Assembly: GCA_958295675.1 (NCBI GenBank)
Contig: OY282360.1
Location: 261,466-325,465 of the forward strand
Source: Minisyncoccota bacterium
GTDB lineage: Bacteria > Patescibacteriota > Minisyncoccia > Phycocordibacterales > JABAAK01
Length of the DNA stretch: 64,000 bases
Direction of reading: 5' to 3'
The notes under the pieces are model-generated. The model made no database searches and was not told the DNA's origin. It saw nothing but the letters and a program-made list of their open reading frames with translations. The translations under genes and the position numbers were made by a program. Below are positions 7,401-64,000 of the stretch, one piece after another; within the stretch, counting starts at the first letter, position 1; each line of letters opens with the position of its first letter.

Positions 7401-10400
7401 ATGTATATAACGCAAAATATTTTTTGGTCAAGAGCGACGGCATGGTGTGTCTCAATTGCAATGTTGTTTTCAGTAGTCGGTCCGGCAACACATGCGCAAA
7501 CACAACAGGAACCGCCGGAGCAACAGGCAGAAGCACCGCCGGAGCGTGTGTCGGACGATGATGAAGAGGAAGAAGAACCTGCAGAGCAGGAGGAAGAACA
7601 AGAGGAAGATGAGGAAGAGGAAGTAGTACCGACGGCAACACTTAGCGGTCTCACGGTCTCAGAAACCAATCTCAACGAGCCGTTTGACGCGGAGACAACT
7701 GCCTACACTGCCGATGTAGCGAACACTATTGAAACAGTAACCGTCAGCGCTACACCGACGGACGACACCGCGACGGTCACCTACGATCCGACCGATGCCG
7801 ACACGGAAGAAGAGGGACATCAGATCGCGCTCACGGAAGGGGAGAATACGGTAACGGCGGAGGATGCCGCCGCAACACAGACCTACATCCTGACGGTGAC
7901 CAGAGCTGCGGAAGAAGAACCTGTAGAGGAAGAGAGTGAACCCGAGGGTGACGATGCTACTGAACCCGCCGATGACACGACAAATGAGCAGGCGGATGAC
8001 GAAGAGGAGGAATCAAACGAAGATGGAGAGGAAGAAGGTGAGGAGGAAAACGAAGAACAGGAGGAGAGTGAAGAGGAAGAAGAACCTGTAGAGCAGGAGG
8101 AAGAGGAACAAGAAGAAACAATAACACCACCAACGCTCAACGGTCTCACGGTTTCGGACACCAATCTCAACGAACCGTTTGACGCGGAGACAACTACCTA
8201 CACCGTTGATGTAGCAAATGACATTGAGAATGTGACAGTCACACCTACCGCAGACGATACGATGACAGTAGCATTCACTGACACAACGGATACCGACACG
8301 GAAGAAGAGGGGCATCAGGTCGCGCTCACGGTTGGGGAGAATACGGTAACGATAACAGTCACCGCACAAGACGGGGTAACTGCACAAACTTACATCCTAA
8401 CAATCACCAGAGCCGCCGAGGAATCTGAACATGAAGATGAAGAAGAGACAGAGGAAGAACAGGAAACACCGGAACCGACTGTGGAGCCGGCACCAGAACA
8501 ATCACAACCGGAAGCACAACGACAGCAGGCGCAACTTCCTGATGACGATACCTCGGATACGCAGGCAAATCCGAACGGTCCCCTCCTCATCGCACTAAAA
8601 CCGTCGTCCGACTCACACCGCCACGGCACCATCACCGCGGTAACGGCACTCCCCGGATCACCGACAACCGGCACGGTGATTCGGTTCACCGCATCAGCAT
8701 CATCGCTGGCGAACACGGTGGACACTGACGGCAGTACCGCAAAAACAACCGCGGCGGCAAACGACATGTTCCAGTACAACGACACCAAGTGGGTCTTTAT
8801 GGGAAACGGTGCCACCACGGTGGGCATCAGTTCGGATGTGGACGGGATTACGAATGACGATACACCGACCTTTGTGGTAAAAAGTGCTGACGGCAACACC
8901 TTCGGCGGCGGCAGAGACGATGAAGCGTTTATCGCGAAGCACGCCGGAGCATGTTCTTCGGTGACAATACCAAATAACAGTCTCAACGGTCTTAATCGGA
9001 ATCATGCTGAATATATTTTTAGATCCAGAAGCGGTTGGACAGAAATTGACAGTTTTGATATGGACCTGGATCGGGGAGGTTACAGTGCCGCAGCATCGTT
9101 TGAATTAACATCGGATGAACTTACCGCTGGAAAATACTGTTTCATTGCTTTTTACACTGATAATGGACGAGCAACAGCAAATACTAGTACCGGTCTTACG
9201 GTGACTATAGATAATTCCATAACCACACCGTCACTCAGCATATCCTCCGGCACCGGCACCGCGACACCGACGGTCACTGTTACCAACCTTGAGAATAATG
9301 CCAAAGTGCGTCTCTACACCAGTAGTAACTGCAGCACCGGCACCGCACTCGGTAGTGGCGACACCACAGTAGGAGCGTCAACCAGGGTGAACATTGATTT
9401 GACTGGACGGTCTGTCGGTGACATCTTTTACGCAAAACACACCGATGTCGCAGGTAACACGGCTTGCCGCAGCGGGGTGACGAATATTCCAGGATTGACA
9501 CTTGATCTCACCTCCGACACCGGCACTGACACCACCGACGACCATACAAGCGACACTACACCAGAGTTTACAGTGACCGGATCAACCGCATACGGCGGCT
9601 CAGCGAATAACGAAGTACGCCTCTATCATAAGAACACCGCCTGCGGCACCCTCCCGCCTGTCACGACAATCGCCGGTCTCACCGGATGGACACTCTACAA
9701 AACAACCGATGTCTCCGCTTCCTCCGTCACCTCCACAGCCGGTATCACCTCCGGCACCGCGCTGACCACCGCCGATGAGCACTGCTTCCTTGCTGTTTAC
9801 TCAGCCGACGGCTCGGCGATAACACGATACGGACAGTTGGATGTCGTTATAGACACCACCGCACCGACAATCATCCCACACATCTCACCGTCGCTGCCAT
9901 CAGGCACACCGACAAAGTTCTCGCATGCCGGTGATGTTGCGGTACCATTGGATGATTGGGAGTTCTTCGGCTCCACCGTATCTCTCTCCGCGGACGGCAC
10001 CCTCATGGCAGTTGGTGCGTCACGCGATGATGATGGTGGTACCGACAGCAACAGAGGCGCGGTGTACCTCTTTCAAAAGACAAATGGCTCCTGGGCGAAG
10101 ACCCTGAAGATCTCTGACAATGGCGGCGGCGAGGGATTACTGGATATCAATTTGAGTGATTATGACTACTTCGGCTCCGCCGTCTCCTTCTCGGGAGACG
10201 GCACCGTACTGGCAGTAGGTGCGGATGGTGACGATGACGGTGCGGTGCACCTCTTTCAAAAAACAAATGGCTCCTGGGCGAAGACCCTGAAGATCTCTGA
10301 CAATGACGGCGGTGAGGGATTACTGGATATCAATTTGGGCGACAATGACAACTTCGGCTCCGCCGTATCTCTCTCCGCGGACGGCACTGCACTGGCAGTG

Positions 10401-13400
10401 GGTGCACACGATGACGATGGACGATACAACAACAGAGGTGCGGTCTACCTCTTTCAAAAAACAGACGGTGTATGGGCGAAGACCCTGAAGATCTCTGACA
10501 ATAGCGGCGGCGAGGGATTACTTAATATCGATTTGAGTAGAAGTGACGACTTCGGCTCAGCCGTCTCCTTCTCGGGAGACGGCACCGTACTGGCAGTAGG
10601 TGCGGATGGTGACGATGAAGGCGCGGTGTACCTCTTTCAAAAAACAAATGGCTCCTGGGCGAAGACCTTGAAGATCTCTGACAATGACGGCGGTGAGGGA
10701 TTACTGGATATCAATTTGAGCATATTTGACAACTTCGGCACCGCCGTATCTCTTTCCGCGGACGGCACCGCACTAGCGGTTGGTACGGGTGATAACATCA
10801 GTAGCAAAGGCGCGGTGTACCTCTTTCAAAAGACAAATGGCTCCTGGGCGAAGACCCTGAAGATCTCTGACAACGGCGGCGGCACAGAACTTTTGGATAT
10901 CAATTTGAGCGACAGTGACAGCTTCGGCTCCGCCGTCTCCTTCTCGGGAGACGGCACCGTACTGGCAGTAGGTGCGGATGGTGACGATGACGGCAACAAC
11001 AGCGACATAAATGCCAATAGAGGCGCGGTCTACACATTCGATGTCTCGCCGACTTCAACTACATCTGCGACTGTCACCGCCGTTGACACTGAAGACAGCA
11101 GCACCATGAAATATAAAAAGGTGAGTGGCACCGCCTGCACGGCGACACAGTTCGCAAGCGGTACAGGAACACCGTATGCCGAGAAGGATGCAATTACCGT
11201 CACCAGTGAAACAGATAATAACAAACGGTTTTGTTTCAGGTCGGAAGACGGAGTAGGGAATATCGGTTACGGTATCTCCGCGACAATTGCCGGTATAGAC
11301 ACCACCGCACCGACACTTATTGCTTTCAAAATAGGCACCGGCAGTACCGCGACCTATAAAGTCAGTGCCACGGACAACTCACCCGTCACCGGCAAGACCA
11401 AGGATAATATCGCAGCAGGCAGCTGTACCGACACGACCACAACCGACAACACCTGGACCAGTTACACCCCCGGAACAGAATCCGTCACAGCACACGATGA
11501 CAACGGCAGGTGCATCATTGTTATTGACGCGGCAGGGAACAAGAAAGCACAGCACCTATCGGATAGTGATAACAGCTATCAGACACCGTCCGCAGCGGTG
11601 ACCGGCATAAATTTGCAGGACGGCTCTGATACCGGAGCGGATAATGACAATATCACCTCCGACACCACCGCGCCGGTGATTGAATTTACAGCAACCGCAA
11701 GTGCCACGACAACCGGACGGTGGAGAAAACAGGACGGAGAGTGGAGTTCAACAACCGCCACCACCAATAGCGGCACTGTCACCACCACCCGAACCTACAC
11801 CCTCCCAAACCTGACAGGCGGTGACGGTGTATATGAGGTGGAGATAACACAAACTGAATCGGGGGAACCGGCAAACCCAACACTCTACACATTCACATTG
11901 GACACGAAAGCACCTACCGTGATACCTTTCACTGTCGCTCCCACTCCGGGCGACATTAACTACCTTGGTATTGACGACAGTATCACAGCCTCATTTCTCT
12001 TTAATGAGTCTATGGCAGTGTCACCGGTACTTACCGGAAAGTTCATCAACGACGAGACGGATATTCCAGCATCAGGAGGCAATCATCACACCATCACCGC
12101 CGTTCGCTACGACGCGACGACACAAACCCTCACACTTACCGTCAGGGATGCGGGACCTGATGTCGCCGTGGGTAACTTAAAGTATCAGATTACCAACGGC
12201 GCAGCAATCACTGACATAGCGGGCAACGCTCTCGGTACGCAGACCCGCACGATGTCTATCGACGATACGGCAATAGATACGACAAAACCCATACTCACCT
12301 CCACCAGAGTGGGTACCAGCAGCACCGCAACCTACATAGTCACCGCCACGGACACCTCACCCGTCACCGGAAAAACAAAAGACAATGTCATCTTGACAAA
12401 CTGTACTGACACCACAACCACCGATAACACATGGACATATTACACATCTGGAGAATATACCGGCACGGCAGACAACACCAATGGCAGATGTGTTATCATC
12501 ACGGACGCGGCAGGAAACAAGAAAGCACAGCATCTCTCAGACAGTGATAACACTGTGACGAGTGTTCCTATACTGACACTTGATCTCACCTCCGACACCG
12601 GCACTGACACCACCGACGACCATACAAGCGACACTACACCAGAGTTTACAGTGACCGGATCAACCGCGTACGGCGGTTCCGCGAACAACGAAGTACGCCT
12701 CTATCATAAGAACACCGCCTGCGGTACCCTCCCGACCGACATCACGACAATCACTGCACTCACCGGATGGACACTCTACAAAACAACCGCTACCTCCGCT
12801 ACCTCTTCCACTACCACAACCGGTATCACCTCCCAAACCGCGCTGACCACCACCGACGACCACTGTTTCCTTGCCATCTACTCAACCGACGGCTCAGCGA
12901 TAACACGATACGGACAACTTGATGTCGTCATAGACATCACTGCACCGACAGTCATCCCACACATCTCACCGTCGCTGCCGTCAGGCACGCCGACGAAGTT
13001 CTCACGCGCCGGTGATGTTGCGGTACAATTGGATAGTGGTGACGAATTCGGCTCCGCCGTATCTCTCTCCGCGGATGGCACCCTCATGGCAGTTGGTGCG
13101 TCACACGATGATGGCACCGACAGCAACAGAGGTGCGGTCTACCTCTTTCAAAAAACAAATGGCTCCTGGGCGAAGACCCTGAAGATCTCTGACAATGACG
13201 GTAGTGAAGGATTGCTGGATATCAATTTGAGCAACGGTGACAACTTCGGCTCCGCCGTATCTCTCTCTGCGGACGGCACCATACTGGCAGTCGGTGCGGA
13301 TGGTGACGATGACGGTGCGGTGTACCTCTTTCAAAAAACAAATGGCTCCTGGGCAAAGACCCTGAAAATCTCTGACAATGGCGGTGGCGAGGGATTACTG

Positions 13401-16400
13401 GATATTGATTTGAGTGCAGGTATATTTGACAATAATTTCGGCTCCGCCGTATCTCTCTCTGCGGACGGCACCGCACTGGCGGTTGGTGCGGATGGTGACA
13501 ATAACAATGACGGTGCGGTCTACCTCTTTCAAAAATCAGGCAACACATGGGCAAAGACCCTGAAAATCTCACACACCGGTGATGTTGCGGTACCATTGGA
13601 TGATTGGGACTTCTTCGGTTCCGCCGTGTCTCTCTCTGCGGACGGCACCACACTGGCGGTTGGTGCGTCACGCGATGATGATGGCAACAACAGCAGCATA
13701 AATGCCAATAGAGGCGCGGTCTATCTCTTTCAAAAATCAGGCAATACCTGGGCAAAGACCTTAAAAATCTCCGACAACGGCGGCGGCACAGAACTTTTGG
13801 ATATCAATTTGAGCGACAGTGACAGCTTCGGCTCCGCCGTCTCCTTCTCGGGAGACGGCACCACACTGGCAGTGGGTGTGGATGGTGACAATGAAGGTGC
13901 GGTGTACCTCTTTCAAAAAACAAATGGCTCCTGGGCGAAGACCTTGAAGATCTCTGACAACGGCGGCGGTGAGGGATTATTGGATATTGATTTGAGCAAC
14001 TATGACAACTTTGGCACTGCCGTATCCCTTTCTGTTGACGGCACGCTGGTGGCAGTAGGTGCGGATGGCGATTATGAAGGTGCGGTCTACACATTCGATG
14101 TCTCGCCGACTTCAACTACATCTGCGACTGTCACCGCCGTTGACACTGAAGACAGCAGCACCATGAAATATAAAAAGGTGAGTGGCACCGCCTGCACAGC
14201 GACACAGTTCACGGGCGATACAGGAACACCATATACCGAAGGTGATGCGATTACCGTCACCAGTGAAACAGATAATAACAAACGGTTTTGTTTCAGGTCG
14301 GAAGACGGAGCGGGGAACATCGGTTACGGTATTTCTATCACTCCGAATATAGACACCACTGCCCCCACACTCACCCCCACCAAAGTAGGCATCGGCAATG
14401 CAGCGACCTACAAAGTCAGTGCCACGGATGTCTCACCACCCCTCACCGGTAGAACAAAAGACAATGTCGCCTTGGTCGACTGTACCGACAGCGCGGTAAC
14501 GACAACCTCTGCGGGCTGGTCGGATTACACTCCCGGAACAGACACCGGCACTGCCGATGACACCAACGGCAGGTGTGTCATCATCACGGACGCGGTGGGG
14601 AACAGCAAAGCCCAGCATCTCTCAGACAGTGATAATACGATAACGGGTGTTCCCGCACTGACACTTGATCTCACTTCCGACACCGGCGACACCACCGATG
14701 ACCATACAAGCGACACCACGCCCGCGTTCACGGTGACGGGATTAACCGCGTACGGCGGCTCCGCGAACAACGAAGTGCGTCTCTACCACAAGAACACTGC
14801 TTGCGGCATCCTCCCGACCGCCATCACGACTATCGCCGGTCTCACCGACTGGACACTCTATAAAACAACCGATGTCTCCGCCGCCTCTTCCACCACCACA
14901 ACCGGCATCACTTCAGGAACCGCGCTGACCACCACCGACGAGCACTGTTTCCTTGCTGTCTACTCAACCGACGGCTCGGCAATAACACGACACGGACAGC
15001 TTGATGTCGTTATAGACACCACCACGCCGACGGTCATCCCCCACATCATACCCTCCCTCCCGTCAGGCACGCCGACAAAGTTCTCGCATACCAGTGATGT
15101 CGCGGTGACACTAGATGATGATGACCGTTTCGGCAGTGCAGTTGCATTCTCTGCGGATGGCACCCTCATGGCGGTGGGTGCATACGGCGACGATGACGGC
15201 GGTACCGATAACAACAGCAATAGAGGTGCGGTGTACCTCTTTCAAAAAACAAATAGCTCCTGGGCGAAGACCCTAAAGATCTCTGACAATAACAACGGTT
15301 CAGGATTATTGGATATTGATTTGGATAATAGCGACCGTTTCGGCACTACCACCTCCCTTTCCGCTGACGGCACCATGCTGGCAGTGGGTGCGTACGGCGA
15401 CGATGACGGTGGCACCAACCGAGGCGCGATCTATCTCTTTCAAAAAACGGGCAATACCTGGGCGAAGACCTTAAAAATCTCCGACAACGCCGGTGGTTCA
15501 GGATTGTTGGATATCAATTTAAGTGATTATGACCGCTTCGGTCGCGCTGTCTCCCTTTCCGCCGACGGCACCATGCTGGTAGCGGGTTCGTACGGTGACG
15601 ATGACGGCGGTACCACGAGCGACCGTAACAGAGGTGCGGTCTATCTCTTTCAAAAAACAGGCGATACCTGGGCAAAGACCTTAAAAATATCCGACAACGG
15701 CGGCGGTGAGGGATTATTGGACATCAATTTGGACAACAATGATCGCTTCGGCGTCGCTGCCTCTCTTTCCGCCGACGGCACTATGTTGGCAGTGGGAGCA
15801 TACTATGATGACGATGGTCATGCAAGTGTTGACAGAGGCGCGGTCTACCTCTTTCAAAAAACAAACGGTACCTGGACGAAGACCCTGAAAATCTCCGACA
15901 ATGATGACAGTGAGGGATTATTGGACATCAATTTGGACAACAATGATGAATTCGGCAACGCCATCTCCTTTTCCGCAGACGGTACCATGCTGGCAGTGGG
16001 TGCACACGATGACGATGACGGTGGACAACACAATAACAGAGGCGCGGTCTACCTCTTTCAAAAAACAGGCGGTACATGGGCAAAGACCTTAAAAATCTCC
16101 GACAACGATGGCGGCAAAGAACTATTGGATATCAATTTGCGCAACCATGACTTCTTCGGCTCCGCCGTCTCCTTCTCGGGAGACGGAACCATGCTGGCGG
16201 TGGGAGCAGATCATAATGATGACGGTAGCAGTAACAGCTATGAGAGAGGCGCGGTCTACGCATTCAGCGTATCGCCGAAACTGACCGCTTCCGCGACGGT
16301 CACCGCCGTTGACACTGAGGACAGCAGCACGATGAAATATATGAAAACTACCGGCACCTCCTGTACATCCGCGCAGTTTGCGGGCGGCACAGGAACACCA

Positions 16401-17774: not shown

Positions 17775-17868
17775 GGTGTAGTGAGTTCTGTCGGTGCCGA
17801 GGATGGTTGATATATGCGTGATGTGTTTTTTGTGCATACACATATATTATTCTGTTACCATACAATAC

Positions 17869-18009
17869 ATGGAATATAGTATTTCTCAGATAATAGTACT
17901 TGGTGTGATAATAGGCGGAGCAATATGCGTGAGATTGCTTATCCAACGGATAAGAAGAAAAATGATAAAAAAATTACTTACGAACTTGAGAAAGAATATA
18001 CTGAGATAA
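17869..18009 (+). CDS. Small conserved single-TM protein (46 aa), copy 1
   Basis: 'MEYSISQIIVLGVIIGGAICVRLLIQRIRRKMIKKLLTNLRKNILR' has one TM helix and a basic tail. A paralog at 22501-22644 differs by conservative substitutions and a 1-codon in-frame indel. Confidence 0.4.
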   Translation: MEYSISQIIVLGVIIGGAICVRLLIQRIRRKMIKKLLTNLRKNILR

Positions 18010-18094
18010 TTGGACAGGTGCGCAGTGTGATGTTGCGCGATAGCAAAAGCAGATGATACGGCAACGGACATATTCGACACACTGCATACGCTGG

Positions 18095-18181
18095 CAGGGA
18101 GGTAGGATTATCCACCTCCAATACATGATGTGATAATATAACAAGTATACTACCCATGTGTACAGCACAGGTATAGGTAGT
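18095..18181 (+). promoter_or_regulatory. Conserved promoter/5'-leader cassette upstream of G2 (degenerate copy)
   Basis: 'taggattatccacc...gataatataacaagtatactacccatgtgtacagcacaggtataggtagt' then ATG. Homologous to the cassettes at 23125, 34478, 37381 and 43331. Confidence 0.5.
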
Positions 18182-22270: not shown

Positions 22271-22500
22271 GGAGATGCGAAACGGATGCACCGCGCCGCG
22301 GTAAATCAGAAGAACATTGAGCGGCTGTTGCAGAATGCTGATTGGGCTGTCTTTAACGACGATGATGTTGAGGACCGGACAAGCGACGAGGATAACCAAA
22401 GCGCAGTGAGTCCTGTCGGTGCCGAGGATCGTTGACATATACACATGATGTGTTGTTTGTACATACACACATGTTATTCTATTACCATACAATACATGAC

Positions 22501-22644
22501 ATGGAAGAGTATAGTATTTATCAGATGATAGTAGTTGGTGTGATAATAGGCGGGGCAATGGGTGTGGGCTTGCTTATCCGACGGATGAGAGCAAAAATGA
22601 TAAAAAAATTACTTACGCACTTGAGAAAGAATATACTGAGATAA
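22501..22644 (+). CDS. Small conserved single-TM protein (47 aa), copy 2
   Basis: 'MEEYSIYQMIVVGVIIGGAMGVGLLIRRMRAKMIKKLLTHLRKNILR'. The C-terminal half is nearly identical at nt level to copy 1. Confidence 0.4.
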   Translation: MEEYSIYQMIVVGVIIGGAMGVGLLIRRMRAKMIKKLLTHLRKNILR

Positions 22645-22837: not shown

Positions 22838-23110
22838 GTGACGGTGAGAAAAAAATATACAGATGTCGCGCGACAGCAAAAACATTTGAGCAACATTCGC
22901 GATCGTGTGCAGAATGCCAATGAGACATTTTTTCCGGATAAAACAGATAGACAGTACGACAGTATAGTACTGATTGATGATATGGTCGGCTCCGGTGCTT
23001 CGTTCAATCAGGTCGCGAAAAAACTTGTCAATCGGAACAGTGCGAAAGAAGTGTACGGCATCAGTATCGTCGGTGATCAAAATGGATTCAGTGCGGTGAA
23101 AAAAATATAG
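22838..23110 (+). pseudogene. ComF-family / type I phosphoribosyltransferase C-terminal fragment (90 codons, GTG-initiated, likely gene remnant)
   Basis: 'SIVLIDDMVGSGASFNQVAKKL...AKEVYGISIVG' matches the PRTase motif and ComFC C-terminus. It lacks the N-terminal zinc-finger/PRT half, and there is no ATG start. Confidence 0.45.
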
Positions 23111-23124
23111 CACCGTCTCGGGCA

Positions 23125-23200
23125 GTAAGATTGTCCACCTGTAATAAATAATGCGATAATATAACAAGTACACTGCCTATGTGTACAGCACAGGTATAGT
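23125..23200 (+). promoter_or_regulatory. Conserved promoter/5'-leader cassette upstream of G3: TTGTCC(23131-36)-N18-GATAAT(23155-60), leader hairpin GTACAC-tgcctat-GTGTAC (23168-23186), SD AGGT (23192-95)
   Basis: 'taagattgtccacctgtaataaataatgcgataatataacaagtacactgcctatgtgtacagcacaggtatagt' then ATG. Present in five copies. Confidence 0.5.
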
Positions 23201-33697: not shown

Positions 33698-33904
33698 ATG
33701 AAAAACAAACTGCACACACTTATAAACGGTCTGAAAAATAAATTTCGCGGTCATAAGAATAACCGACCGGCAGCATCCGATGAAACACCAACGAATAACG
33801 GCAGCACACTCAGTCAGGAGGAAGCAAACAGAAGGATTGATAAAGCCGCGAAAGTAACCGTTGAACGATACGGTCATATCATTGAACGCCTCTCAAAAGA
33901 GTAG
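33698..33904 (+). CDS. Candidate antitoxin / small upstream partner of the Doc toxin (68 aa)
   Basis: Its stop TAG is separated by 1 nt from the Doc ATG (TAGtATG translational coupling). No family motif recognised. Confidence 0.3.
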   Translation: MKNKLHTLINGLKNKFRGHKNNRPAASDETPTNNGSTLSQEEANRRIDKAAKVTVERYGHIIERLSKE

Positions 33905-33905
33905 T

Positions 33906-37380: not shown

Positions 37381-37476
37381 CAGTGCACCTTGGCGGGGAG
37401 GTAAGATTGTCCACCTGTAATAAATAATGCGATAATATAGCAAGTATACTGCTTGTGTGTACAGCACAGGTATAGT
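37381..37476 (+). promoter_or_regulatory. Conserved promoter/5'-leader cassette upstream of G5
   Basis: 'ccttggcggggaggtaagattgtccacctgtaataaataatgcgataatatagcaagtatactgcttgtgtgtacagcacaggtatagt' then ATG. The stem here is GTATAC/GTGTAC, which is a U-G wobble if transcribed. Confidence 0.5.
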
Positions 37477-43330: not shown

Positions 43331-43408
43331 TAAGATTATCCACCTGTAATAAATAATGCGATAATATAGCAAGTATACTGCCCGTGTGTACAGCACAGAT
43401 ATTATTGT
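43331..43408 (+). promoter_or_regulatory. Conserved promoter/5'-leader cassette upstream of G6
   Basis: 'taagattatccacctgtaataaataatgcgataatatagcaagtatactgcccgtgtgtacagcacagatattattgt' then ATG. Confidence 0.5.
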
Positions 43409-54870: not shown

Positions 54871-55941
54871 GTGCCGAGTCGGGTGAATAAAGCGTACGAT
54901 ATCAAGGATCCGAATGTGCTGATATATGTTGAGAAAGCAATGCATCGTCTCGGTGAACTCAACGCATACTCATATCTTATTCCTGATGTTGATTTCTTTA
55001 TCCGTATGCATATAAATAATGAGGCCGTGAAATCAAGCAGAATTGAAGGAACAAAAACAGGCATAGACGAGGCGATTCTCAACAGGGAAGAGATTAATCC
55101 GGAGATGCGGGATGATTGGCAGAAAGTGCAGAATTATGCGAACGCGATGGAATACGGCATAAAAGAAATGAAAGAATTACCGGTATGTATGCGATTGTTA
55201 TGCGGCGTGCATAAAGAATTGATGCAGGAAGTGCGCGGTGAAGACAAGCAGCCGGGAAAATTCAGAAAAGAACAAAATTGGATAGGCGGCAAGAGCATTC
55301 AGGATGCGTCATTTATACCGCCGCATCCGGATGATGTGTCAGACGCGCTGCAAGATTGGGAGAAATTTGTGAATAACAGGCGAATAACAATATCGGATCT
55401 CATACAAATTGCCATAGCCCATTACCAATTTGAGACTATTCACCCGTTTAATGACGGGAACGGGAGAACGGGTCGTATAGCAATAATACTGCAACTTATC
55501 GAAATGGGTGTGCTGGATAAGCCGACATTGTATCTCTCTGACTTTTTTGAAAAGCATCGGGAAAAATATTACGACACCCTCTCCGCGGTTCGTGATTCAA
55601 ACAAGATGGATCAATGGATTTTGTTTTTTCTGGAAGGTCTTGCGGAAACAGCGAAAAAAGGGAGAGAAACACTCCAAAATATTGTTGCTTTGCGGGAGGA
55701 ATATGCAAGTAAAGTATTCACTTTAGATCGGCAGGCGAAATTAGCGGACAAGATACTCACCCACGCCTTCTCTCATCCGGGGTTTAATGTGGCGGAAATA
55801 GTGCAGCATTGCAAAACATCAACGGCAACAGCGAATGCGGTCATCAGCAAAATGGTGGATTGCGGTATGCTGAAAGAAATAACAGGATACTCCAGAAACA
55901 GGATATTTGTATTATGGGAATATCTTGCTTTATTCAAGTGA
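54871..55941 (+). CDS. fic: Fic family protein (AMPylator-type Fic domain with C-terminal wHTH-like region)
   Basis: Canonical Fic motif 'HPFNDGNGRTGR'. The N-terminal 'EAVKSSRIEGT' region is typical of Fic proteins. GTG start. Confidence 0.85.
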   Translation: MPSRVNKAYDIKDPNVLIYVEKAMHRLGELNAYSYLIPDVDFFIRMHINNEAVKSSRIEGTKTGIDEAILNREEINPEMRDDWQKVQNYANAMEYGIKEMKELPVCMRLLCGVHKELMQEVRGEDKQPGKFRKEQNWIGGKSIQDASFIPPHPDDVSDALQDWEKFVNNRRITISDLIQIAIAHYQFETIHPFNDGNGRTGRIAIILQLIEMGVLDKPTLYLSDFFEKHREKYYDTLSAVRDSNKMDQWILFFLEGLAETAKKGRETLQNIVALREEYASKVFTLDRQAKLADKILTHAFSHPGFNVAEIVQHCKTSTATANAVISKMVDCGMLKEITGYSRNRIFVLWEYLALFK

Positions 55942-56126: not shown

Positions 56127-59100
56127 ATGTATATTAAAAATAAATTTAGCACACGGTTAAGTCTTACAAGCGGTATCACCGCACTGAGTATTATTGTAAG
56201 TGTACTGGCAATGTCTGCGATGCCGGCGTACGCGACGACTCCGGGCGGCACACTGTCTGGGCATGCGCCGACAGAAGCAAGCAACCCGAGCGTGAGAGCG
56301 TACACCTCTGACACATCAGGAGTAAAGTTGCGCATCAGACCGTCAATCACTACCGCGCTGTCAAACACGGTGCCGTTTCCAGCCGGCGATGTATCAACGA
56401 AAGAATTTCTGATATATTCCCGCATATTCTACGACTCAAACAAAGTAACGCCGAGCAATCTTGAAATCGGCGGTGAGACCTACACGGGTACTGTCGGCGG
56501 TAATGCTACTTTGGTGCAGGATAAATATATACACGGGGGAGGTATAAATCTGTCTCCAATAAATATATACGCTGGTTTCTACCAGCTCATAGACACCCTC
56601 AGTATCACAACTCCTCAGGCAAGTTCGCACTGTCTGTTTAATACCGGCATGATACCGGACAGTATTGACGGCACCGACACGTCATCCGCCACTTTGGCAA
56701 CGGTGAAGAGCACGATAGAGGCGCTCGGCTACGACAAGTGTGTATTGGTGGGTGTTTCTATTAACGGTGTCCGTGTTGAGAACGGCATCTCAAAAAATCT
56801 GTTTGCCAACGCACTGACCACCGGCACCAACCTTGATCTCGGTGATGTCAACTTCAACATCGAGGACGGCGCGGGCGGCAATATTGACTTCCTTTCATGG
56901 GTATTTATCAAACAGGGCGCGTCGTCATGGAATGTCTCGCCGGGCACGATTACCAGTATCAGTGATTCAAAACCTCCGACTATCACGCTGGAGGAGAATT
57001 TACCGACCACCACCAGCACCACCGACGATGAGTTTAAGATGCAGGTGAGCGAACCAATCGCGCTCAACAAAGTTACCGTTACCTGTACACCCGGCACGAC
57101 CTATACACCCGGCGGCGGCACCAATATCAATCCGACCCTGATCATCGCCGACAGCACGGGCGGTGCGGCGCGCACCACGGCGATTCCCAAGGGTGTTGAT
57201 GTGTTTGTCAAAATTTCTGCGGGTTTGACCGGTAGCACGCGGTATACCTGCGCAGCGACGGTGTCCGACGGCACCAACACCTCCGCTTCGGCGACGCAGC
57301 TCGGATCGTTCATCTTTGCCGACACAACAGCACCAATGTTTGACAGTATTGCCGTGGAGCGGAGCAGTACGAATAATGCGGATGCCAAGAGCAATAAGTA
57401 TGCGAAAGAGGATGATACCGTAAAAGTAACATTGAATTTCAACGAGAACATAAGCAGCGTCGGGACGGTGGTCATCAAGATGGGTGGTAGCAGTGGCACG
57501 ACGGTAACCTCGTCAGACCCGAAGGATCCGAGCGATGATACCACATTTGATGGTTCCAGTGACACCACAAGCAGCGTGTACTATACATTTGATGTTCCTT
57601 CGGGGGTAAACGGTGCCGTGTATGTTTCAGCGGTTAATTTTATTGATAAAGCGTCAGCCCCGAACACACAAAGCGTTGCACAAAACTACACAACAACTAC
57701 AGCCGACGACACACTGGCATCATTCTTCGTCATTGACACTGTCGCGCCGAGCGCACCGTCAGCACCTGATTTGAAAGCTGGTTCAGACACCGGTCACAGC
57801 GACATTGACAATATTACCAGTAACGAAACACCGATCATCACTGTGGATCTCGCTACCAATGCCGATAGCACCGTTGATCGCGCGCGGGTAACAGCAACCA
57901 AAAGCAGTGAAACCGTGGTCGGCAACAGAAACGGTGACGGTGATGTGACACTCGGTACGCTTGCGGAAGGTACCTGGTCAGTTGAGGTGAACGCGATTGA
58001 TAATGCGGGCAACAGCATCGCATCCGGCAGTCCGCTGAGTGTGAGGATCGACAAAACAGCACCGACAAGCCCGACCGTTCCGCTGAACTCCGCAGCACCA
58101 TTCGCGAGCAGCGACCGCTACATTAACAGTGCCGAGAGTTCAACGAATGCGGCGACAGTATTGGTCGGCACCACAACGGGAGGCGGCAAACATGACGGAT
58201 CGGATGCATTTGCGATTACCGCGAGTGACACAGCTTGCCAAGACGGTCTCACATTCGGCGAATCAGACACCGTGGAAGTGCGGGATGTGTCATCGGACGG
58301 CGTGTACCGCGTATGTTTCCGCGCCGCTGACGAGGCGGGCAACTATGCCTACGCGACCAGTCCCACATTCACGAAGGACACCACCGATCCGACCGTATTT
58401 ATCATAGATTTGACCGTCAATAATTATCAAATTACCGCCGCCGATGCCAATACGCCAACGGCATCATATGTTCTCAACGGTATTGCGTCATCAGGTGTGA
58501 CATGTAACGCCGGACAGACATACACACCGGTGCCGGGGAATAGCCAAATCACCATCACGGCCGGCAATCTACCGTGTGTATCAGTAGCCGATGCCGCAGG
58601 AAACACCATATATTCAACATCAGTCACACAGGGCGCGGCAATAACCGGTATCGGTGTGAGCTCGGAGACAGCAGGCAGCAAACTGATAGGCGGCAGCAGC
58701 ACATTTAATGTATACGGCACGGGACCGGCCGAATCAACAGTCACCCTCCGCCGCCGATCAACCAGTACTACAACTGACACGCTGAGTGATTACGCCACTG
58801 TTATCGGCAGCGACACAATTGCCTCCGGTGCTAGCACCTGGTCCGTGGCGGTCAACCTCGCTGACGACACCTATGATTTCGCAACCACATCCGTGCTCGG
58901 TGACGGTACGGTACTCAACACTCCAGTGCCATACAAAGGGGTGGTTGTTGACACGACAGCACCGACCGCATCACTGTCGGCAACACCGACCGCCGCCAGC
59001 GTGAGCAACGCCACCACAGCCACCGCGACAGTCGCCGGAACCGGTGTGACGCACTATAAATATGAGATTGTCGCGGGAGCATCCTGTTCAGGTGCCACCT

Positions 59101-60329
59101 ACGCTGGCAGTGAAGTTGTGGTCGGAACCGGAATCTCAGAAATTTCTGCTATCTCACCCCTCGCGGACGGACCGGTATCTCTCTGTGTTATCGGCAGGGA
59201 TCAGGCAGGGAACTGGCAGCAAACCGGCACTCCGCACACCTGGACGAAGGACACCACCGGTCCGTCACTCACCTTTGTCTCGCTGACATCGGACAACACG
59301 GGTAATACCGCCTTTTCAAAAGAAAATCATGTACTCACGGCACTCGTGCGTGTTACTGATGCGAATCCGGCGGCAACATTTACTCCGACAGCGAGCATCG
59401 ATGTTTCCGGTCTGACACTCAGCGCGAAATTAGCATCGCGGCTTACCGACGGCAATATTCAGATTGTCGGCACGCTTCCGACATCACTCACCGGAATAAC
59501 CAACACAGCTACACCGTCGGTATCCGTCACCGGCAGCACTGTCGTTGACGCTGCGGGGAACGCTGCCACAGATTTGACACACGCCGCGACCGCGCACACC
59601 GTGGACGATCAGGCACCGACTGTATCGGCAGTATCCGCGACATCAAATGAGCGTGGGCGGACATCTATCTCCTTTACCACCGCGACTGCGACAGCACAGG
59701 AACCGCTTCAGGTAGTACTGAGCCACTCCTGCGACGCTGATGCCGGTTTTGATTCAAAGAGCGTGAGCGGTGCCGGCGCGCAGAGCGTGGTCTACAGCGG
59801 TATCAATGCCGAAACCTATAGCGACTGTACCGTGAAAGTGGTAGACCCGGTAGGACATGAATCCACACCGGTCTCTATCGCTGAGTTCAGCGTGCTGCGC
59901 AGAGGCGGGTCGGCAGGACCGGTCTCCGGAGGAGGCGGTTCCCGCGCTCCCTCACTGTCCGAAAGCCGACAGGGTCCGTCAGCATCCGCATCTCGGGTAA
60001 TCGGATCATCGGCAGGAGCCGCAGCAGCACCTGTCGTGCTATACCGCCGCGGTGATGAGAATCCGCAGATCAGGCAGATACAGCAGTCACTCAATTATCT
60101 CGGACACACAATCGCGGAGAGCGGTCCCGGCTCACCGGGAAGCGAGACCGATTATTTCGGACCGGCAACAGAGCGCGCGGTGATGAGTTTCCAGCAAGCG
60201 AACAGTATGTCCGCAACAGGTGTACTTGACGGAACGACCGTAAGGCAGATTCTCATCATGACGATCATTAAGAGAATAGAGGCAATCAAATTGAGAATTG
60301 CGGAACTGCAGAGCGCAGAGGGAGAGTAG
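56127..60329 (+). CDS. Surface protein G7 (1400 aa): signal peptide, tandem bacterial Ig-like domains, C-terminal PG_binding_1-like peptidoglycan-binding domain
   Basis: Signal 'MYIKNKFSTRLSLTSGITALSIIVSVLAMSAMPAYA'. Repeated 'DTTAP(T/S)' Ig-domain boundaries. The C-terminus 'IRQIQQSLNYLGHTI...DYFGPATERAVMSFQQANSMSATGVLDGTTVRQIL' matches the PG_binding_1 pattern (vk.lQ..L..lGy...vDG.fG..T..AV..FQ...gL..dGivg..T). It has no cadherin-like, GLUG or dockerin-like modules. Confidence 0.8.
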   Translation: MYIKNKFSTRLSLTSGITALSIIVSVLAMSAMPAYATTPGGTLSGHAPTEASNPSVRAYTSDTSGVKLRIRPSITTALSNTVPFPAGDVSTKEFLIYSRIFYDSNKVTPSNLEIGGETYTGTVGGNATLVQDKYIHGGGINLSPINIYAGFYQLIDTLSITTPQASSHCLFNTGMIPDSIDGTDTSSATLATVKSTIEALGYDKCVLVGVSINGVRVENGISKNLFANALTTGTNLDLGDVNFNIEDGAGGNIDFLSWVFIKQGASSWNVSPGTITSISDSKPPTITLEENLPTTTSTTDDEFKMQVSEPIALNKVTVTCTPGTTYTPGGGTNINPTLIIADSTGGAARTTAIPKGVDVFVKISAGLTGSTRYTCAATVSDGTNTSASATQLGSFIFADTTAPMFDSIAVERSSTNNADAKSNKYAKEDDTVKVTLNFNENISSVGTVVIKMGGSSGTTVTSSDPKDPSDDTTFDGSSDTTSSVYYTFDVPSGVNGAVYVSAVNFIDKASAPNTQSVAQNYTTTTADDTLASFFVIDTVAPSAPSAPDLKAGSDTGHSDIDNITSNETPIITVDLATNADSTVDRARVTATKSSETVVGNRNGDGDVTLGTLAEGTWSVEVNAIDNAGNSIASGSPLSVRIDKTAPTSPTVPLNSAAPFASSDRYINSAESSTNAATVLVGTTTGGGKHDGSDAFAITASDTACQDGLTFGESDTVEVRDVSSDGVYRVCFRAADEAGNYAYATSPTFTKDTTDPTVFIIDLTVNNYQITAADANTPTASYVLNGIASSGVTCNAGQTYTPVPGNSQITITAGNLPCVSVADAAGNTIYSTSVTQGAAITGIGVSSETAGSKLIGGSSTFNVYGTGPAESTVTLRRRSTSTTTDTLSDYATVIGSDTIASGASTWSVAVNLADDTYDFATTSVLGDGTVLNTPVPYKGVVVDTTAPTASLSATPTAASVSNATTATATVAGTGVTHYKYEIVAGASCSGATYAGSEVVVGTGISEISAISPLADGPVSLCVIGRDQAGNWQQTGTPHTWTKDTTGPSLTFVSLTSDNTGNTAFSKENHVLTALVRVTDANPAATFTPTASIDVSGLTLSAKLASRLTDGNIQIVGTLPTSLTGITNTATPSVSVTGSTVVDAAGNAATDLTHAATAHTVDDQAPTVSAVSATSNERGRTSISFTTATATAQEPLQVVLSHSCDADAGFDSKSVSGAGAQSVVYSGINAETYSDCTVKVVDPVGHESTPVSIAEFSVLRRGGSAGPVSGGGGSRAPSLSESRQGPSASASRVIGSSAGAAAAPVVLYRRGDENPQIRQIQQSLNYLGHTIAESGPGSPGSETDYFGPATERAVMSFQQANSMSATGVLDGTTVRQILIMTIIKRIEAIKLRIAELQSAEGE

Positions 60330-60383: not shown

Positions 60384-60552
60384 TTTGCCGTATATAAATG
60401 AATATGTAGTATTACTGTCCGCCGCGGAAACAGATATGTGCGGTCAGCGTTCAAGTAAATAAAAAAGTTATCAACACGGATAAAAATAAACAAGCGCAGT
60501 ATCAAGTATACTGGGATTATTACTATTAAAAAGGGTTAATACATTTTTTTGT

Positions 60553-63500
60553 ATGCATATAAGTCAAAGTATATTCTTGTCACGGTTTGTGGCAGTGTTT
60601 GTCTCAATGGCAATGATTTTTTCTGTAACGATGATTCCTGTCTCTTCCGCGCAGGTGCCTCCTGAGACACCGGCGGCAAATGACGGGCAGCAGGGAACTG
60701 GAGATGATTCTTCGGAAGAGCAAACAGACGAAACACAGTTACCGGATGATGAAGATACTTCAAACACTCAACCCGAAACACCGGCAGAGGATGACGCGAC
60801 CCTCTCGGCACTGACCCTCTCGGACGATAGAGCACTCAACGAACCGTTTGAGACAGCGACAACCGCCTACACCGCTGATGTGGCGAATACTATTGAAACA
60901 GTAACAGTCAGCGCGACAGCAACCAATAGCGATGCGACTGTTGTCTACACCGACACCACAGATGCCGACACAGACACGGTGGGACAGCAGGTCACGCTCA
61001 CGGAAGGAGAGAACACCGTAACGATAATAGTCACGGCACAGGACGGAGTAACCGTGCAGACCTATACCCTAACGATCACCAGAGCGGCTGAAGAGCCAAG
61101 TGAACCCGAGGATGATAATACGCAACCTGCAAATGAGCCAGCGGACGACGAAGAAGAACCTGTAGAGGAAGAGGAGGAATCAAACGAAGATGGAGAGGAA
61201 GAAAGTGAAGAGGAAGAACAGGAGGAGAGCGAAGAAGAGGAAGAGGAAACAGCACCGACGGCAGCACTCAGCGGTCTCACGGTCTCGGACACCGATCTTA
61301 ACGAAACATTTGATCCTGCTGTAACAAGTTACACGGCTGATGTTGCAAATGCTATTGAGAATGTAACGGTTACACCGACCGCAGACGATACGGTAACTGT
61401 GGCATTTACTGATACCACGGATGCCGACACGGAAGAAGAGGGACACCAGGTCGCGCTCACGGAAGGAGAGAACACCGTAACGATAACGGTAACTGCGCAG
61501 GACGGGGTAACCGTGCAGACCTATACGCTAACCATCACCAGAGCGGCTGAAGAGCCAAGTGAACCCGAGGATGACAATACGCAACCTGCAAATGAGCCGG
61601 CAGACGACGAAGAAGAACCTGTAGAGGAAGAGGAAGAATCAAGCGAAGAGGAAGAGGAAGAAAGTGAAGAGGAAAACGAAGAACAGGAAACACCGGCAGA
61701 GGATGATGCGACCCTCTCAGCACTGACCCTTTCGGACGATATATCGCTCAACGAACCGTTTGACGCGGCGACAACCGCCTATACCGCTGCTGTCGCGAAT
61801 GCCGTTGAAGCAGTAACCGTTACCGCGACACCGACGAATGACACCGCAACGGTCACGTACGATCCGACTGATGCCGATACGGAAGAAGAGGGACACCAAA
61901 TCAATCTCACGGAAAGGGAGAACACGATAACGATAACGGTACAGGACGGGGTAACCGTACAAACCTATACACTCACCATTACCAGAGCGGCGGAAGAGGA
62001 AAGTGAGGAAGAAGAGGAAACACCGACACCAACACTCAGCAATCTCACGGTCTCGGACACTAATCTTAACGAACCGTTTGACTCGGAGACAACCGCCTAC
62101 ACCGCTGATGTTGCAAATGAGATTGAAAATGTGACAGTAACACCGACCGCAGACGATGCAATGACCGTGGCATTTACTGATACAACGGATGCCGACACGG
62201 AAGAAGACGGACACCAAGTCAATCTAACAGAAGGAGAGAACACCGTAACGATAACGGTAACCGCAGAGGACGGGGTAACGGTGCAAACCTATACACTCAC
62301 TATCACCAGAGCGGTGGAAGAGGAAGAGCCAAGTGAACCCGAGGACGACGATGCAGCAGAGCCGGCAGACGAAGAAGAGGAGGAAACACCGGAGCCAGTT
62401 GTGGAAAGCGTACCGGAGCCGACCGTTGAAGTAATGGCACCGCCACAACCACAGGCACAACGGCAGCAGGCGCAACTTCCCGGTGACGACACCTCGGATA
62501 CGCAGGCGGCACCGACCACTGCGTATACGGTAAGCATCAAACCGAATGCGATAAACGACACTGGTTCGTCAAATAGCGATAATGTCACCAAGAACAAGAG
62601 ACCGGCAATTCGAATTAGTCAAGCGTCTGACTATGGTCCGGAGACGGGTCAAAATAATCACCAAGCGAATGTTCGGTTAAAGTCTGGCGCCTGTCCGGCG
62701 GCTTTGCCAACTGACACCAACACGCAGGCGCTAAGTCAGGCCGGATGGTCAATATGGTATGGAGGCTTTGCCTTAACTGCTGGTACTACCACATACAGAA
62801 CGCTGGATGTTGCAAGATCTGCCGCGAGTGATCTGTCTGACGGACAGTATTGTGCACTGGGATATTACAACACAGACCATGCGGGCGGTGCTACATCTAA
62901 TACACTGGTAACGGCCTCATACGGAATGAGGACAATAACGATAGACAGCACCGCACCGTCCGCACCGACGCTTGCCATTGCTTCTGGTGGCGGGACACTG
63001 AGACCGACAGTAAGAGTGAGCGGGCTTGAGAATACTGGTAGTGTTAAGGTACAACTGTTTACTGCTCTCAACACTGGTGATGTCACTCAATGTGCTTCAA
63101 GCGCGAGTGCAGTTGTAACAACCAGTGCGGGTGAGACATCCAAGGATGTGCTGGCGACCGTAGATGTGACTGCCGGTAACAATATATATGCCAACCAAAT
63201 AGATGCTGCTGGCAACACATCTAACTGCAGCGGTTATTTACAAAACATCAGCAAGACAGCCACACCGACCGGGCTTGATTTAGATGATTCAACCAACTCG
63301 GGATCAAACACCGACAGTATCACCAACAACACAACACCGAAGATAGCATTCACCGCGGCGAGCGGTGCCACGATTGCGGCAACATTCAGCAGCAAGCCGT
63401 CCGGTGCGAGTTCGCTGAGCGACACGATACCCGTCTCAACAACCGGCACAAGCCCCACTCTCGCCGAGACAAGCGGATCATATACGCTCACCCTCCCGAC

Positions 63501-64000
63501 CCTGAGTACGAACGGTGACTACGAGGTCTCCATCACCGCGCAGGGGAGCGGGGAAACGGTCTCCGCTGCCGCAACCTACACCTTCACCCTGGACACGGTA
63601 GCACCGTCTGCCAGTAATGTCAGACTGAGCATCGCGGCGCCGTTTGCCTCGGATCGGTATATAAATGATAGTGAGAAGGCGAATACCAACACGCTTGTTG
63701 GTAGTGTGACCGCGACGGGACACAGTGCCGCACTGGACAGATTTGCGGTTATTGCTGCAACCGGAGGAGTATGTGACAATACGGTTACCTTTGAAACAAA
63801 AGCGAACACCACCGCGGCAGATGCTGCAACGGACGGTGAATATATAATCTGTTACCGCGCGCAGGATGCGGCGACGAACAGCACATATATAGTAAGTATT
63901 GACACATTTACCCGCGACACCGCTGCACCGACCGTTGCTATTTCCACAAATGACTATATTGAAACAGACGGTGTATGGCACAACGGTGATATATATTTAA
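60553..64000 (+). CDS. Giant secreted surface protein G8 (3' partial, more than 1149 aa in window): distinct signal peptide, 4 cadherin-like domains in an acidic stalk, conserved QQAQLPGDDTSDTQ hinge, Ig-like domains
   Basis: ATG at 60553 begins 'MHISQSIFLSRFVAVFVSMAMIFSVTMIPVSSAQ'. The frame stays open to the window end (spot-checked at 62461-62700 and 63961-64000). Cadherin-like units at about 60790, 61255, 61690 and 62020. It is absent from the ORF track because there is no stop in the window. Confidence 0.8.
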   Translation, partial: MHISQSIFLSRFVAVFVSMAMIFSVTMIPVSSAQVPPETPAANDGQQGTGDDSSEEQTDETQLPDDEDTSNTQPETPAEDDATLSALTLSDDRALNEPFETATTAYTADVANTIETVTVSATATNSDATVVYTDTTDADTDTVGQQVTLTEGENTVTIIVTAQDGVTVQTYTLTITRAAEEPSEPEDDNTQPANEPADDEEEPVEEEEESNEDGEEESEEEEQEESEEEEEETAPTAALSGLTVSDTDLNETFDPAVTSYTADVANAIENVTVTPTADDTVTVAFTDTTDADTEEEGHQVALTEGENTVTITVTAQDGVTVQTYTLTITRAAEEPSEPEDDNTQPANEPADDEEEPVEEEEESSEEEEEESEEENEEQETPAEDDATLSALTLSDDISLNEPFDAATTAYTAAVANAVEAVTVTATPTNDTATVTYDPTDADTEEEGHQINLTERENTITITVQDGVTVQTYTLTITRAAEEESEEEEETPTPTLSNLTVSDTNLNEPFDSETTAYTADVANEIENVTVTPTADDAMTVAFTDTTDADTEEDGHQVNLTEGENTVTITVTAEDGVTVQTYTLTITRAVEEEEPSEPEDDDAAEPADEEEEETPEPVVESVPEPTVEVMAPPQPQAQRQQAQLPGDDTSDTQAAPTTAYTVSIKPNAINDTGSSNSDNVTKNKRPAIRISQASDYGPETGQNNHQANVRLKSGACPAALPTDTNTQALSQAGWSIWYGGFALTAGTTTYRTLDVARSAASDLSDGQYCALGYYNTDHAGGATSNTLVTASYGMRTITIDSTAPSAPTLAIASGGGTLRPTVRVSGLENTGSVKVQLFTALNTGDVTQCASSASAVVTTSAGETSKDVLATVDVTAGNNIYANQIDAAGNTSNCSGYLQNISKTATPTGLDLDDSTNSGSNTDSITNNTTPKIAFTAASGATIAATFSSKPSGASSLSDTIPVSTTGTSPTLAETSGSYTLTLPTLSTNGDYEVSITAQGSGETVSAAATYTFTLDTVAPSASNVRLSIAAPFASDRYINDSEKANTNTLVGSVTATGHSAALDRFAVIAATGGVCDNTVTFETKANTTAADAATDGEYIICYRAQDAATNSTYIVSIDTFTRDTAAPTVAISTNDYIETDGVWHNGDIYL

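Follow-up and report, generated by a model that had tools for sequence, protein, structure and literature searches.

A tandem array of giant modular proteins in a Kaiserbacteria-related Patescibacterium, a probable family of surface adhesins with a shared C-terminal twin repeat

The 64,000-nucleotide (nt) stretch of DNA analysed here, which we call the window, contains from position 7401 to its end at 64000 eight very large open reading frames (ORFs), named g1-g6, g8 and g9, seven of which encode mutually related proteins. The locus probably encodes Sec-exported, giant, all-beta modular surface adhesins, a tandem family specific to this lineage that is held on the envelope by a twin repeat. 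The array region of ~56.6 kb takes up ~7.8% of a 724.5-kb contig, a replicon of the size seen in the candidate phyla radiation (CPR). Judged from the named matches of the SMC-like protein encoded in front of the array, the host is a Kaiserbacteria-related Patescibacterium.

A first-pass annotation of this DNA had claimed eight consecutive paralogous genes of 934-3724 amino acids (aa) on one strand, with more than 18,000 codons in all. The sizes and the common strand are borne out by the forward-strand ORF list, every long ORF from 7401 to the window end being on that strand, but the eight ORFs sum to only 17,408 codons. The large ORFs are real, but they are not strictly consecutive, as a Fic gene, a Doc-like ORF, a phosphoribosyltransferase (PRTase) fragment and small membrane ORFs intervene; likewise, seven of the eight (g1-g6 and g9) are paralogous, but g8 is of a different kind. 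All eight proteins are rich in Thr, Asp, Gly, Ala and Ser. The g4 product is identical to a database protein (P0001) on the 724,510-bp contig, and that of g2 is also identical to a database protein there.

All-against-all BLASTP divides g1-g6 and g9 into blocks of 300-1500 aa that are 40-78% identical and appear in permuted order, and together with maps from hidden Markov models (HMMs) built within the window it shows that module order and copy number differ from paralog to paralog, as had been proposed. The gene bodies are 70-87% identical at the DNA level, and g3 contains an internal duplication, a super-repeat with a period of ~4.2 kb and 81-87% DNA identity. The g8 protein resembles the other members in its immunoglobulin (Ig)-type modules (30-35% identity), its MYI start, its signal peptide and a degenerate upstream element. 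Behind the signal peptide comes an N-terminal region of ~500 aa that no other member has; Big_13 and further Ig-like domains follow, then a Gly/Ser/Ala linker, and PG_binding_1 (50.8 bits) closes the chain. Stalk, hinge and C-terminal twin repeat are absent. Since it shares only Ig-type modules and has its own N-terminal region and PG_binding_1, the array is best described as seven paralogs plus one related wall-binding protein.

The modules were examined with Pfam at its gathering thresholds (24.2 bits for Cadherin-like, 25 for fn3, 20.5 for GLUG and 22.9 for Dockerin_1), which supports the Cadherin-like, fn3 and Ig-like modules proposed earlier and, in g3, the GLUG motif. Cadherin-like (PF12733) matches g1, g2, g3, g5, g6 and g9 at 72-209 bits (E down to 4e-61), with no match in g4 or g8. 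The fn3 scores (PF00041) are 69.9, 32.8, 58.8 and 70.7 bits in g3, g4, g5 and g6 (best E 1e-19), and Big_13 is found in g8, g3 and g9 (46, 30.7 and 29 bits). GLUG (PF07581) is above its cut-off in g3 (34.6 bits, E=1.9e-08) and just under it in g4 (20.1) and g5 (17), with no match in g6 at E<=0.01. The in-window HMMs find 16 Cadherin-like, 36 FG-GAP, 15 fn3 and 33 GLUG units, the last arranged as 3-4 motifs per module in nine homologous modules across g3-g6, and five more Ig-like domain types together with an 'EF-like + GLUG + post-GLUG' super-module fill nearly every leftover gap. The acidic stalks hold between zero (g4) and four (g9) Cadherin-like units, and 'DTDGDGLI' loops correspond to the DxDGDG calcium (Ca) loops, both as the first-pass annotation had it; the Gln-rich hinge that it called conserved is present, but the run of five Gln residues (Q5) is restricted to g2-g6. 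Matches to AnfO_nitrog, Ssl1 and similar Pfam families were discounted because they overlapped FG-GAP blades spuriously or fell below threshold, as were PDB profile matches to 'Bagel' designer propellers and the C protein alpha-antigen, which were summed 9-residue matches or lay at E ~0.2-0.4.

FG-GAP propellers had been predicted with 7-9 blades and under PF01839. The propellers stand, but PF01839 is not among the Pfam matches; the matching family is FG-GAP_2 (PF14312), with 369 bits in g1 (E=7.5e-113), 124.5 in g2, 121.8 in g3 and 105.2 in g6. By the in-window HMM and motif register each propeller has six repeats of ~67 aa with Ig domains directly on both sides, not 7-9 blades, and Pfam marks six stretches each in g2, g3 and g6 and 17 in the three propellers of g1. 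From these repeats we would count six per propeller, and a cryptic seventh blade may be present. For the Ig-like domains, residues 245-640 of g2 were modelled with AlphaFold2 (AF2) from an alignment of the paralogs; the model, with a predicted local distance difference test (pLDDT) score of 67, is all-beta and comprises three sandwich domains. Foldseek ranks a tandem Ig extender from a large adhesin (6xi3, E=1.7e-10) and SiiE (2yn5/2yn3) highest, so that the predicted structure confirms the match of these domains to adhesin-type Ig repeats in fold.

The members are also alike at their 5' ends. All eight genes begin with ATG-TAT-ATA or ATG-CAT-ATA (MYI or MHI), and seven are preceded by TTGTCC/TTATCC-N18-TG-GATAAT and then AGTAYACT with a GTACAC-N7-GTGTAC palindrome, of which g8 carries a degenerate copy. 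The pattern AGTAYACT-N15-45-TATGYATAT occurs seven times in the window, every time at these starts, with zero occurrences expected by chance. The palindrome lies at 23167-23190 in front of g3, between the -10-like site and the start, and has equivalents before g2, g4, g5 and g6, reading GTATAC in g2, g5 and g6; it could act as an operator or as a hairpin of the 5' untranslated region for coordinated control. Every member has an N-terminal hydrophobic signal-like segment, in agreement with the signal peptides claimed for these proteins. Anchor-like hydrophobic segments are N-terminal only, and two internal ones (g3 and g5) fall within Cadherin-like domains. The array proteins have neither a C-terminal hydrophobic helix nor a C-terminal LPXTG, the sole LPxTG string being internal (g3 residue 1434). 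A lipoprotein anchor was rejected by the lipobox rule, as the Cys of the signal segment is preceded by Arg (LTRC) and fits no lipobox.

The feature that sets the family apart is a twin 66-aa C-terminal repeat, D[IF]TGNGTxNYLDAIVHYYYAQNP..GGAVMANFINAND, carried by all of g1-g6. It is the best-conserved DNA of the array, with 88-94% identity between genes, and within a gene its two copies agree at 93-99%, a sign of concerted evolution. Searches of Pfam, NCBIfam and PDB with the twin repeat returned no relative. HMMER against 1.84 billion representative proteins gave nine matches, of which four belong to this strain, two (P0354 and P0358) proved on inspection of their sequences to be artefacts of composition or repeats, and three are true: a 1948-aa mosaic protein (P0355), a 1244-aa Peptidase_S8 protein (P0356) and an 861-aa propeller protein (P0357), all with the tag at the C-terminus. 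A scan of GTDB representatives with the twin repeat found none, nor did a scan of JGI metagenomes with a diversified alignment of it. In a protein word-index search nothing longer than ~1,650 aa was listed, so that even g3, g5 and g6 were missed and the absence of giant homologues there is uninformative.

A sister species, whose PurF-like protein is 79% identical, has arrays of its own with the same domains plus Calx-beta. One of its loci (L012) has genes of 1546, 3002 and 3159 aa and the other (L013) genes of 2673, 2714 and 1948 aa, then a Fic gene, then one of 4603 aa. A gene of ~3 thousand aa at L012 also ends in the twin repeat (end at 24214). Since a Peptidase_S8 protein and a lone propeller protein of the sister species carry the tag at their C-termini, as do mosaic giants, it behaves as a portable C-terminal module. 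At L012 9935-24214, the 1546-aa call meets the 3002-aa one at an in-frame TGA (14639-14641) and the homologous frame goes on in another frame; the two calls may be one frameshifted gene of ~4.7 thousand aa.

The repeat contains loops, DITGNGTANYLD and DFTGNGTxNYLD in the window and DISGDNTLNTND and DISGNGATNQHD in relatives, that fit the 12-residue Ca-loop pattern of dockerins and EF-hands, tested as D1, N/D/T3, D/N5, N/D9 and D12. In the twin-repeat alignment (A5), D4 is nearly invariant and D15 invariant. Membership of Dockerin_1 (PF00404) was rejected at 9.8 bits (E=1.3, loop only) against the cut-off of 22.9, and a PDB profile search reached dockerin chains only at E ~1.8. In the 64-kb window no cohesin was found.

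Comparison with a second strain shows how the family changes. The comparison assembly, a 23.9-kb contig of another ENA sample (ERZ19488997 contig_4; L001/L005), is collinear with window 1-18927 (98.5%) and 19400-21393 (97.1%), so that g1 and most of g2 are not assembly artefacts. In the housekeeping flank the strains differ at 8-24 positions per 500 nt (~2.5%), with 128 synonymous and 28 nonsynonymous codon changes. Window 7246-18450 (11.2 kb, comprising the g1 promoter, g1 and the 5' end of g2) is identical between the strains except for three short conversion-like patches (11441-11690, 12614-12767 and 14699-14780), which points to recent exchange or a gene-specific sweep. In the Cadherin-like unit of g2, 24 of 92 codons differ, and in the later part of the gene the synonymous to nonsynonymous ratio is ~1:1. 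The first post-hinge Ig-like domain of g2 is a strain-variable cassette: the other strain's allele is ~40% identical to that of the window and resembles the g5 copy (66%), and the window's own domain resembles the g4 copy (59%), with one substitution in the 65 codons preceding the swapped domain and ~97% identity on its 3' side. The identical tract, the patches, the Ig replacement and the raised nonsynonymous share together bear the mark of recombination, both among strains and among paralogs. Duplication, block shuffling, short conversion patches and between-strain exchange all contribute to the evolution of the family. Single-base indels at window 7848, 11804, 11948 and 17239 break g1 of the second assembly into ORFs of 1474, 1795 and 124 aa (L001 10002-16959 / L005 1-9617); they could be sequencing errors or real pseudogenisation.

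The first-pass annotation had read the array as an adhesin or cell-cell contact repertoire of an episymbiont. Its domain vocabulary and mosaic paralogy are confirmed by Pfam and BLASTP, and an episymbiont fits both the CPR taxonomy from the SMC relatives and the 724.5-kb contig; adhesion and surface location we infer. The twin repeat, the common promoter and leader, the embedded Fic and Doc-like genes and the distinct nature of g8 go beyond that annotation. After cleavage of the signal peptide, the proteins would be held non-covalently on the envelope by the twin repeat, a role suggested by its being, besides the N-terminal signal and leader, the only part common to the six complete paralogs, which have no other anchor. 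The repeat may act as a Ca-dependent docking tag, for which the peptidoglycan-binding g8 is one candidate partner. The displayed modules would then form a repertoire of binding specificities for host or partner cells, its diversity maintained by selection from hosts and possibly phages.

Several observations weigh against this reading. The g1 protein alone runs ~180 aa past the twin repeat (17229-17771; residues 3277-3457) in a tail without a Pfam match, so that the tag is not obligatorily C-terminal. Dockerin likeness by hhalign, against three dockerin sequences, was rejected at a probability of 6% over 15 aligned columns in the loop, and the AF2 model of the repeat, made from six near-identical rows, is of low confidence (pLDDT 39) and has no usable fold. 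Independent assembly support covers window 1-21393, and g3-g9 rest on one assembly. Finally, the embedded SoFic-like, Doc-like and PRTase genes fit a phage-shaped flexible island equally well.

A bolder version of the adhesin reading, which we offer tentatively as one possibility, makes the twin 57-66-aa repeat a new Ca-dependent docking module, an analogue of dockerin that evolved in one Kaiserbacteria-related clade. It would plug exchangeable adhesins and at least one subtilisin-type protease onto a wall-bound receptor, perhaps g8, and the promoter/leader and the tag would serve as homology arms for swaps of genes and Ig domains that re-tune host attachment.

The main rival, compatible with the adhesin reading and in our view unlikely as the full account, is a phage-driven flexible island, in which the giant proteins are exposed parts of the envelope, maybe phage receptors or shields, their diversity is phage escape, and defence genes gather among them. 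The embedded genes favour it. The SoFic-like Fic protein, recognised by a motif sought as HxFx(D/E)GNGRxxR, matches PADLOC SoFic at 377 bits (positions 14-358 of 361) and NCBIfam SoFic at 186.9 bits, under the equivalog cut-off of 550. The sister-species array holds a Fic gene too (L013 16004-17167; 59% identical), which suggests stable linkage rather than random insertion. The Doc-like ORF scores 21.2 bits with Fic/DOC and 36.4 with DOC_P1 (cut-off 38.65), and with the overlapping 68-aa ORF upstream, judged by arrangement, it is a possible toxin-antitoxin pair; the truncated PRTase-CE-like fragment is probably a decayed gene. The absence of the array after the SMC gene in a relative with a 62%-identical SMC-like protein (641-kb genome), the domain replacement between strains and the raised nonsynonymous fraction point the same way. 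On the other side, the set of Cadherin-like, integrin-type propeller, fn3 and adhesin Ig domains is typical of binding proteins, and GC content falls to 0.45 around the Fic gene, so the defence genes may be later insertions.

We consider it quite unlikely that the proteins form a structural coat, a fibrous envelope like a surface layer (S-layer) or glycocalyx that spaces and protects the cell without specific ligand binding. Very long beta-sandwich chains rich in Thr, Ser, Asp and Gly on acidic stalks would suit such a coat, and the common retention tag and promoter suggest coordinated bulk expression; the relevant passages on Vampirococcus also ascribe its fibrous surface to giant proteins. 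Yet seven differently shuffled paralogs would not be expected of a coat, nor would the replacement of a single domain between strains 98-99% identical at the locus.

Programmed antigenic or phase variation, where one expressed gene is rewritten from the others or switched among them through conserved ends, is very improbable, although the 5' ends (with ~80 nt upstream) and 3' ends are conserved around variable middles and both conversion-like patches and a swapped domain between strains are seen. All members are complete ORFs, seven with the same promoter-like site, leader and ATG and g8 with its degenerate copy, and there are no silent, promoterless cassettes. Within the 64 kb no invertase, recombinase or reverse transcriptase was found, and only short A6-A7 runs follow the start codon. 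The surface-layer variation system of the first-pass annotation, taken as a programmed switch, thus finds no support in full ORFs with their own promoter-like sites and starts; recombination-driven diversification between strains is nevertheless seen.

We give equally little credence to a cellulosome-like scaffold, in which dockerin-like tags would assemble proteins, proteases included, into a polymer-degrading complex. The tag has a DxTxNGxxNxxD-type loop and is also carried by a subtilisin-family protein in the sister species, and PF12733 and GLUG domains are also found in glycan- and protein-degrading systems; but no catalytic domain was detected in the eight window proteins, dockerin membership was rejected by Pfam and hhalign, and the 64-kb window holds no cohesin. 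Least probable of all is the mis-assembly that the first-pass annotation had raised, with collapsed or chimeric repeats yielding false giant ORFs: the region is highly repetitive and the second assembly breaks inside g2 and has frameshifts in g1, but that independent assembly is collinear at 97-99% over g1 and most of g2, the paralogous segments are at most ~94% and mostly 70-87% identical and therefore resolvable in assembly, the 10-kb ORFs stay open and the sister species has similar genes.

The taxonomy rests on named matches of the SMC-like protein, whose relatives are 51-64% identical and lie on contigs of 0.63-0.93 Mb; the best named matches are to Candidatus Kaiserbacteria (58% and 51%), and Patescibacteria, Pacebacteria and Parcubacteria come next at 44-46%. 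Genes for type IV pili occur in relatives. The SMC-like protein is merely 720 aa long, and its Kaiserbacteria-like relatives share this range (700-760 aa). Next to it, the PurF-like protein (2890-4353) is 45-98% identical within its own clade (45-83% in other species) and next matches Proteobacteria at ~41%, and an alignment scan of GTDB representatives returned proteobacterial and Flavobacterium PurF only, at 28-40% identity; the gene may have been acquired horizontally. The longest-ORF call of the DUF805 gene overlaps the SMC-like gene (5128-7290) by ~400 nt, and the call in the other strain is 191 aa. NusB and NUDIX are fused in a single 298-aa protein (window 2-592; L001 2302-3198). Within the array, the small membrane ORFs after g1 and g2 and the remnant of the g1 tail suggest that both the tail and the small ORF were formerly part of the duplication unit. 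Scanning the window for Rfam families and tRNAs gave no match, and forward-strand terminator-like sites are no commoner than in shuffled sequence. Coordinates are collected in Table 1.

Table 1. Features of the array and its surroundings, in window coordinates
Feature	Position	Strand	Description
g1	7401-17774	+	3457 aa; signal peptide; acidic stalk with 2 Cadherin-like; Ig-like; three six-repeat FG-GAP_2 propellers, Ig-like before each; twin repeat; unique ~180-aa tail
g2	18182-22270	+	1362 aa; signal peptide; stalk with 1 Cadherin-like; Q-rich hinge; 3 Ig-like; one six-repeat propeller; 2 Ig-like; twin repeat
g3	23201-33574	+	3457 aa; stalk with 2 Cadherin-like; hinge; Ig; one propeller; three EF-like+GLUG; fn3; internal Cadherin-like; twin repeat
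g4	34556-37360	+	934 aa, smallest member; signal peptide; stalk without Cadherin-like; hinge; 2 Ig; fn3; one EF-like+GLUG; twin repeat
g5	37477-43254	+	1925 aa; stalk with 1 Cadherin-like; hinge; Ig; fn3; two GLUG modules; internal Cadherin-like; fn3/Big_13; Ig; twin repeat; no propeller
g6	43409-54583	+	3724 aa; stalk with 3 Cadherin-like; hinge; Ig; one propeller; three GLUG modules; fn3/Big_13; internal Cadherin-like; twin repeat
g8	56127-60329	+	1400 aa
g9	60553 to beyond 64000	+	at least 1149 aa, cut by window end, C-terminus outside window; signal peptide; stalk with 4 Cadherin-like; Ig/Big_13
Twin repeat, g1	16818-17228	+	
Twin repeat, g2	21863-22267	+	
Twin repeat, g3	33167-33571	+	
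Twin repeat, g4	36953-37357	+	
Twin repeat, g5	42853-43251	+	
Twin repeat, g6	54176-54580	+	
Promoter-like site and leader, g1	7355-7408	+	
Promoter-like site and leader, g2	18144-18189	+	
Promoter-like site and leader, g3	23131-23208	+	TTGTCC-N18-TG-GATAAT, AGTAYACT / GTACAC-N7-GTGTAC, then ATGTATATA (Met-Tyr-Ile)
Promoter-like site and leader, g4	34482-34563	+	
Promoter-like site and leader, g5	37407-37484	+	
Promoter-like site and leader, g6	43372-43416	+	
Promoter-like site and leader, g9	60505-60560	+	
First post-hinge Ig-like domain of g2	18927-19400	+	strain-variable cassette
Fic gene (Fic_N+Fic)	54871-55941	+	356 aa; motif HPFNDGNGRTGR; no signal peptide; putative SoFic type
Doc-like toxin ORF	33861-34343	+	160 aa; motif GHKLVDGNKRSS; between g3 and g4
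68-aa ORF	33698-33904	+	upstream of and overlapping the Doc-like ORF
Truncated PRTase-CE-like phosphoribosyltransferase	22838-23110	+	90 aa; between g2 and g3; profile positions 77-157 of 253
Single-pass membrane ORF after g1	17869-18009	+	~46 aa
Single-pass membrane ORF after g2	22501-22644	+	~46 aa
Remnant of g1 tail	22286-22435	+	downstream of g2 stop codon
Housekeeping genes	first 7.3 kb	+	NusB-NUDIX fragment, RNase III, hypothetical protein, PurF-like amidophosphoribosyltransferase, SMC-like ATPase
DUF805 gene	4386-5534	-	longest-ORF call

Among known systems, the giant adhesins of the repeats-in-toxin (RTX) and type I secretion system (T1SS) kind, such as SiiE, LapA and MpIBP, also have long chains of Ig-like extender domains, Ca-binding loops and ligand-binding modules along the chain. 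They carry a C-terminal T1SS signal, whereas the window proteins have an N-terminal Sec-type signal and other terminal modules; Pfam found no RTX nonapeptide (HemolysinCabind) in them, and the window has no T1SS genes. Dockerins (PF00404) share with the twin repeat the duplicated C-terminal segments, the portability across unrelated exoproteins and the strong symmetry of the two copies (93-99% at the DNA level here); each dockerin segment opens with a 12-residue DxNxDGxxNxxD loop that leads into a helix, an arrangement that the repeat may have as well. Dockerins show dual-binding symmetry. A dockerin segment measures ~22 aa, whereas the repeats here are 57-66 aa long and score below the Pfam threshold. 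The array is further like the variable surface proteins of Mycoplasma and the tpr family of Treponema, in which tandem paralogs keep their 5' and 3' ends constant around variable modular centres and show signs of gene conversion. In contrast to those families, the array proteins are far larger and built of folded domains instead of short repeats, no switch element was found, and all members look independently expressible.

Apart from the type IV pili of Saccharibacteria, host recognition and binding in the CPR are reported to be largely unknown (PMC12206443). The locus offers concrete candidates for host binding in a diversifying family with a modular grammar and a defined variable domain, the first post-hinge Ig. 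Its lineage-restricted C-terminal tag could explain how proteins without a membrane anchor are retained on the cell and, if it is indeed a docking module, would be a new principle of envelope display in a phylum with a little-studied envelope. Through the 11-kb identical tract and the single-domain replacement, host-range evolution in this uncultivated lineage becomes accessible to population genomics.

The closest parallels are the giant proteins of Vampirococcus and Omnitrophota. Passages on the CPR predator Vampirococcus lugosii describe 10 proteins, 1392-4163 aa long, whose domains include integrin, fibronectin and PKD and which are proposed to act in host attachment (PMC8080830), and passages on Omnitrophota note giant genes that are rich in Ca-loops, with dockerin-like ('dockerin-type') elements (bioRxiv 10.1101/2023.11.21.568195). 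As far as these passages go, the proteins described there share with the array a very large extracellular multi-domain build, integrin- and fibronectin-type modules and a proposed role in attachment, in a small CPR-type genome. The array differs in being one tandem set of mutually paralogous, block-shuffled members with a common promoter and leader and a lineage-restricted twin repeat, and its proteins have no C-terminal membrane anchor and no enzymatic domains; neither the tandem arrangement nor the twin-repeat tag is mentioned in the keyword-matched passages of the two papers. Thus, giant proteins of this kind are already known from Vampirococcus and Omnitrophota, and the array organisation, the tag and the evidence for domain swapping are the new details.

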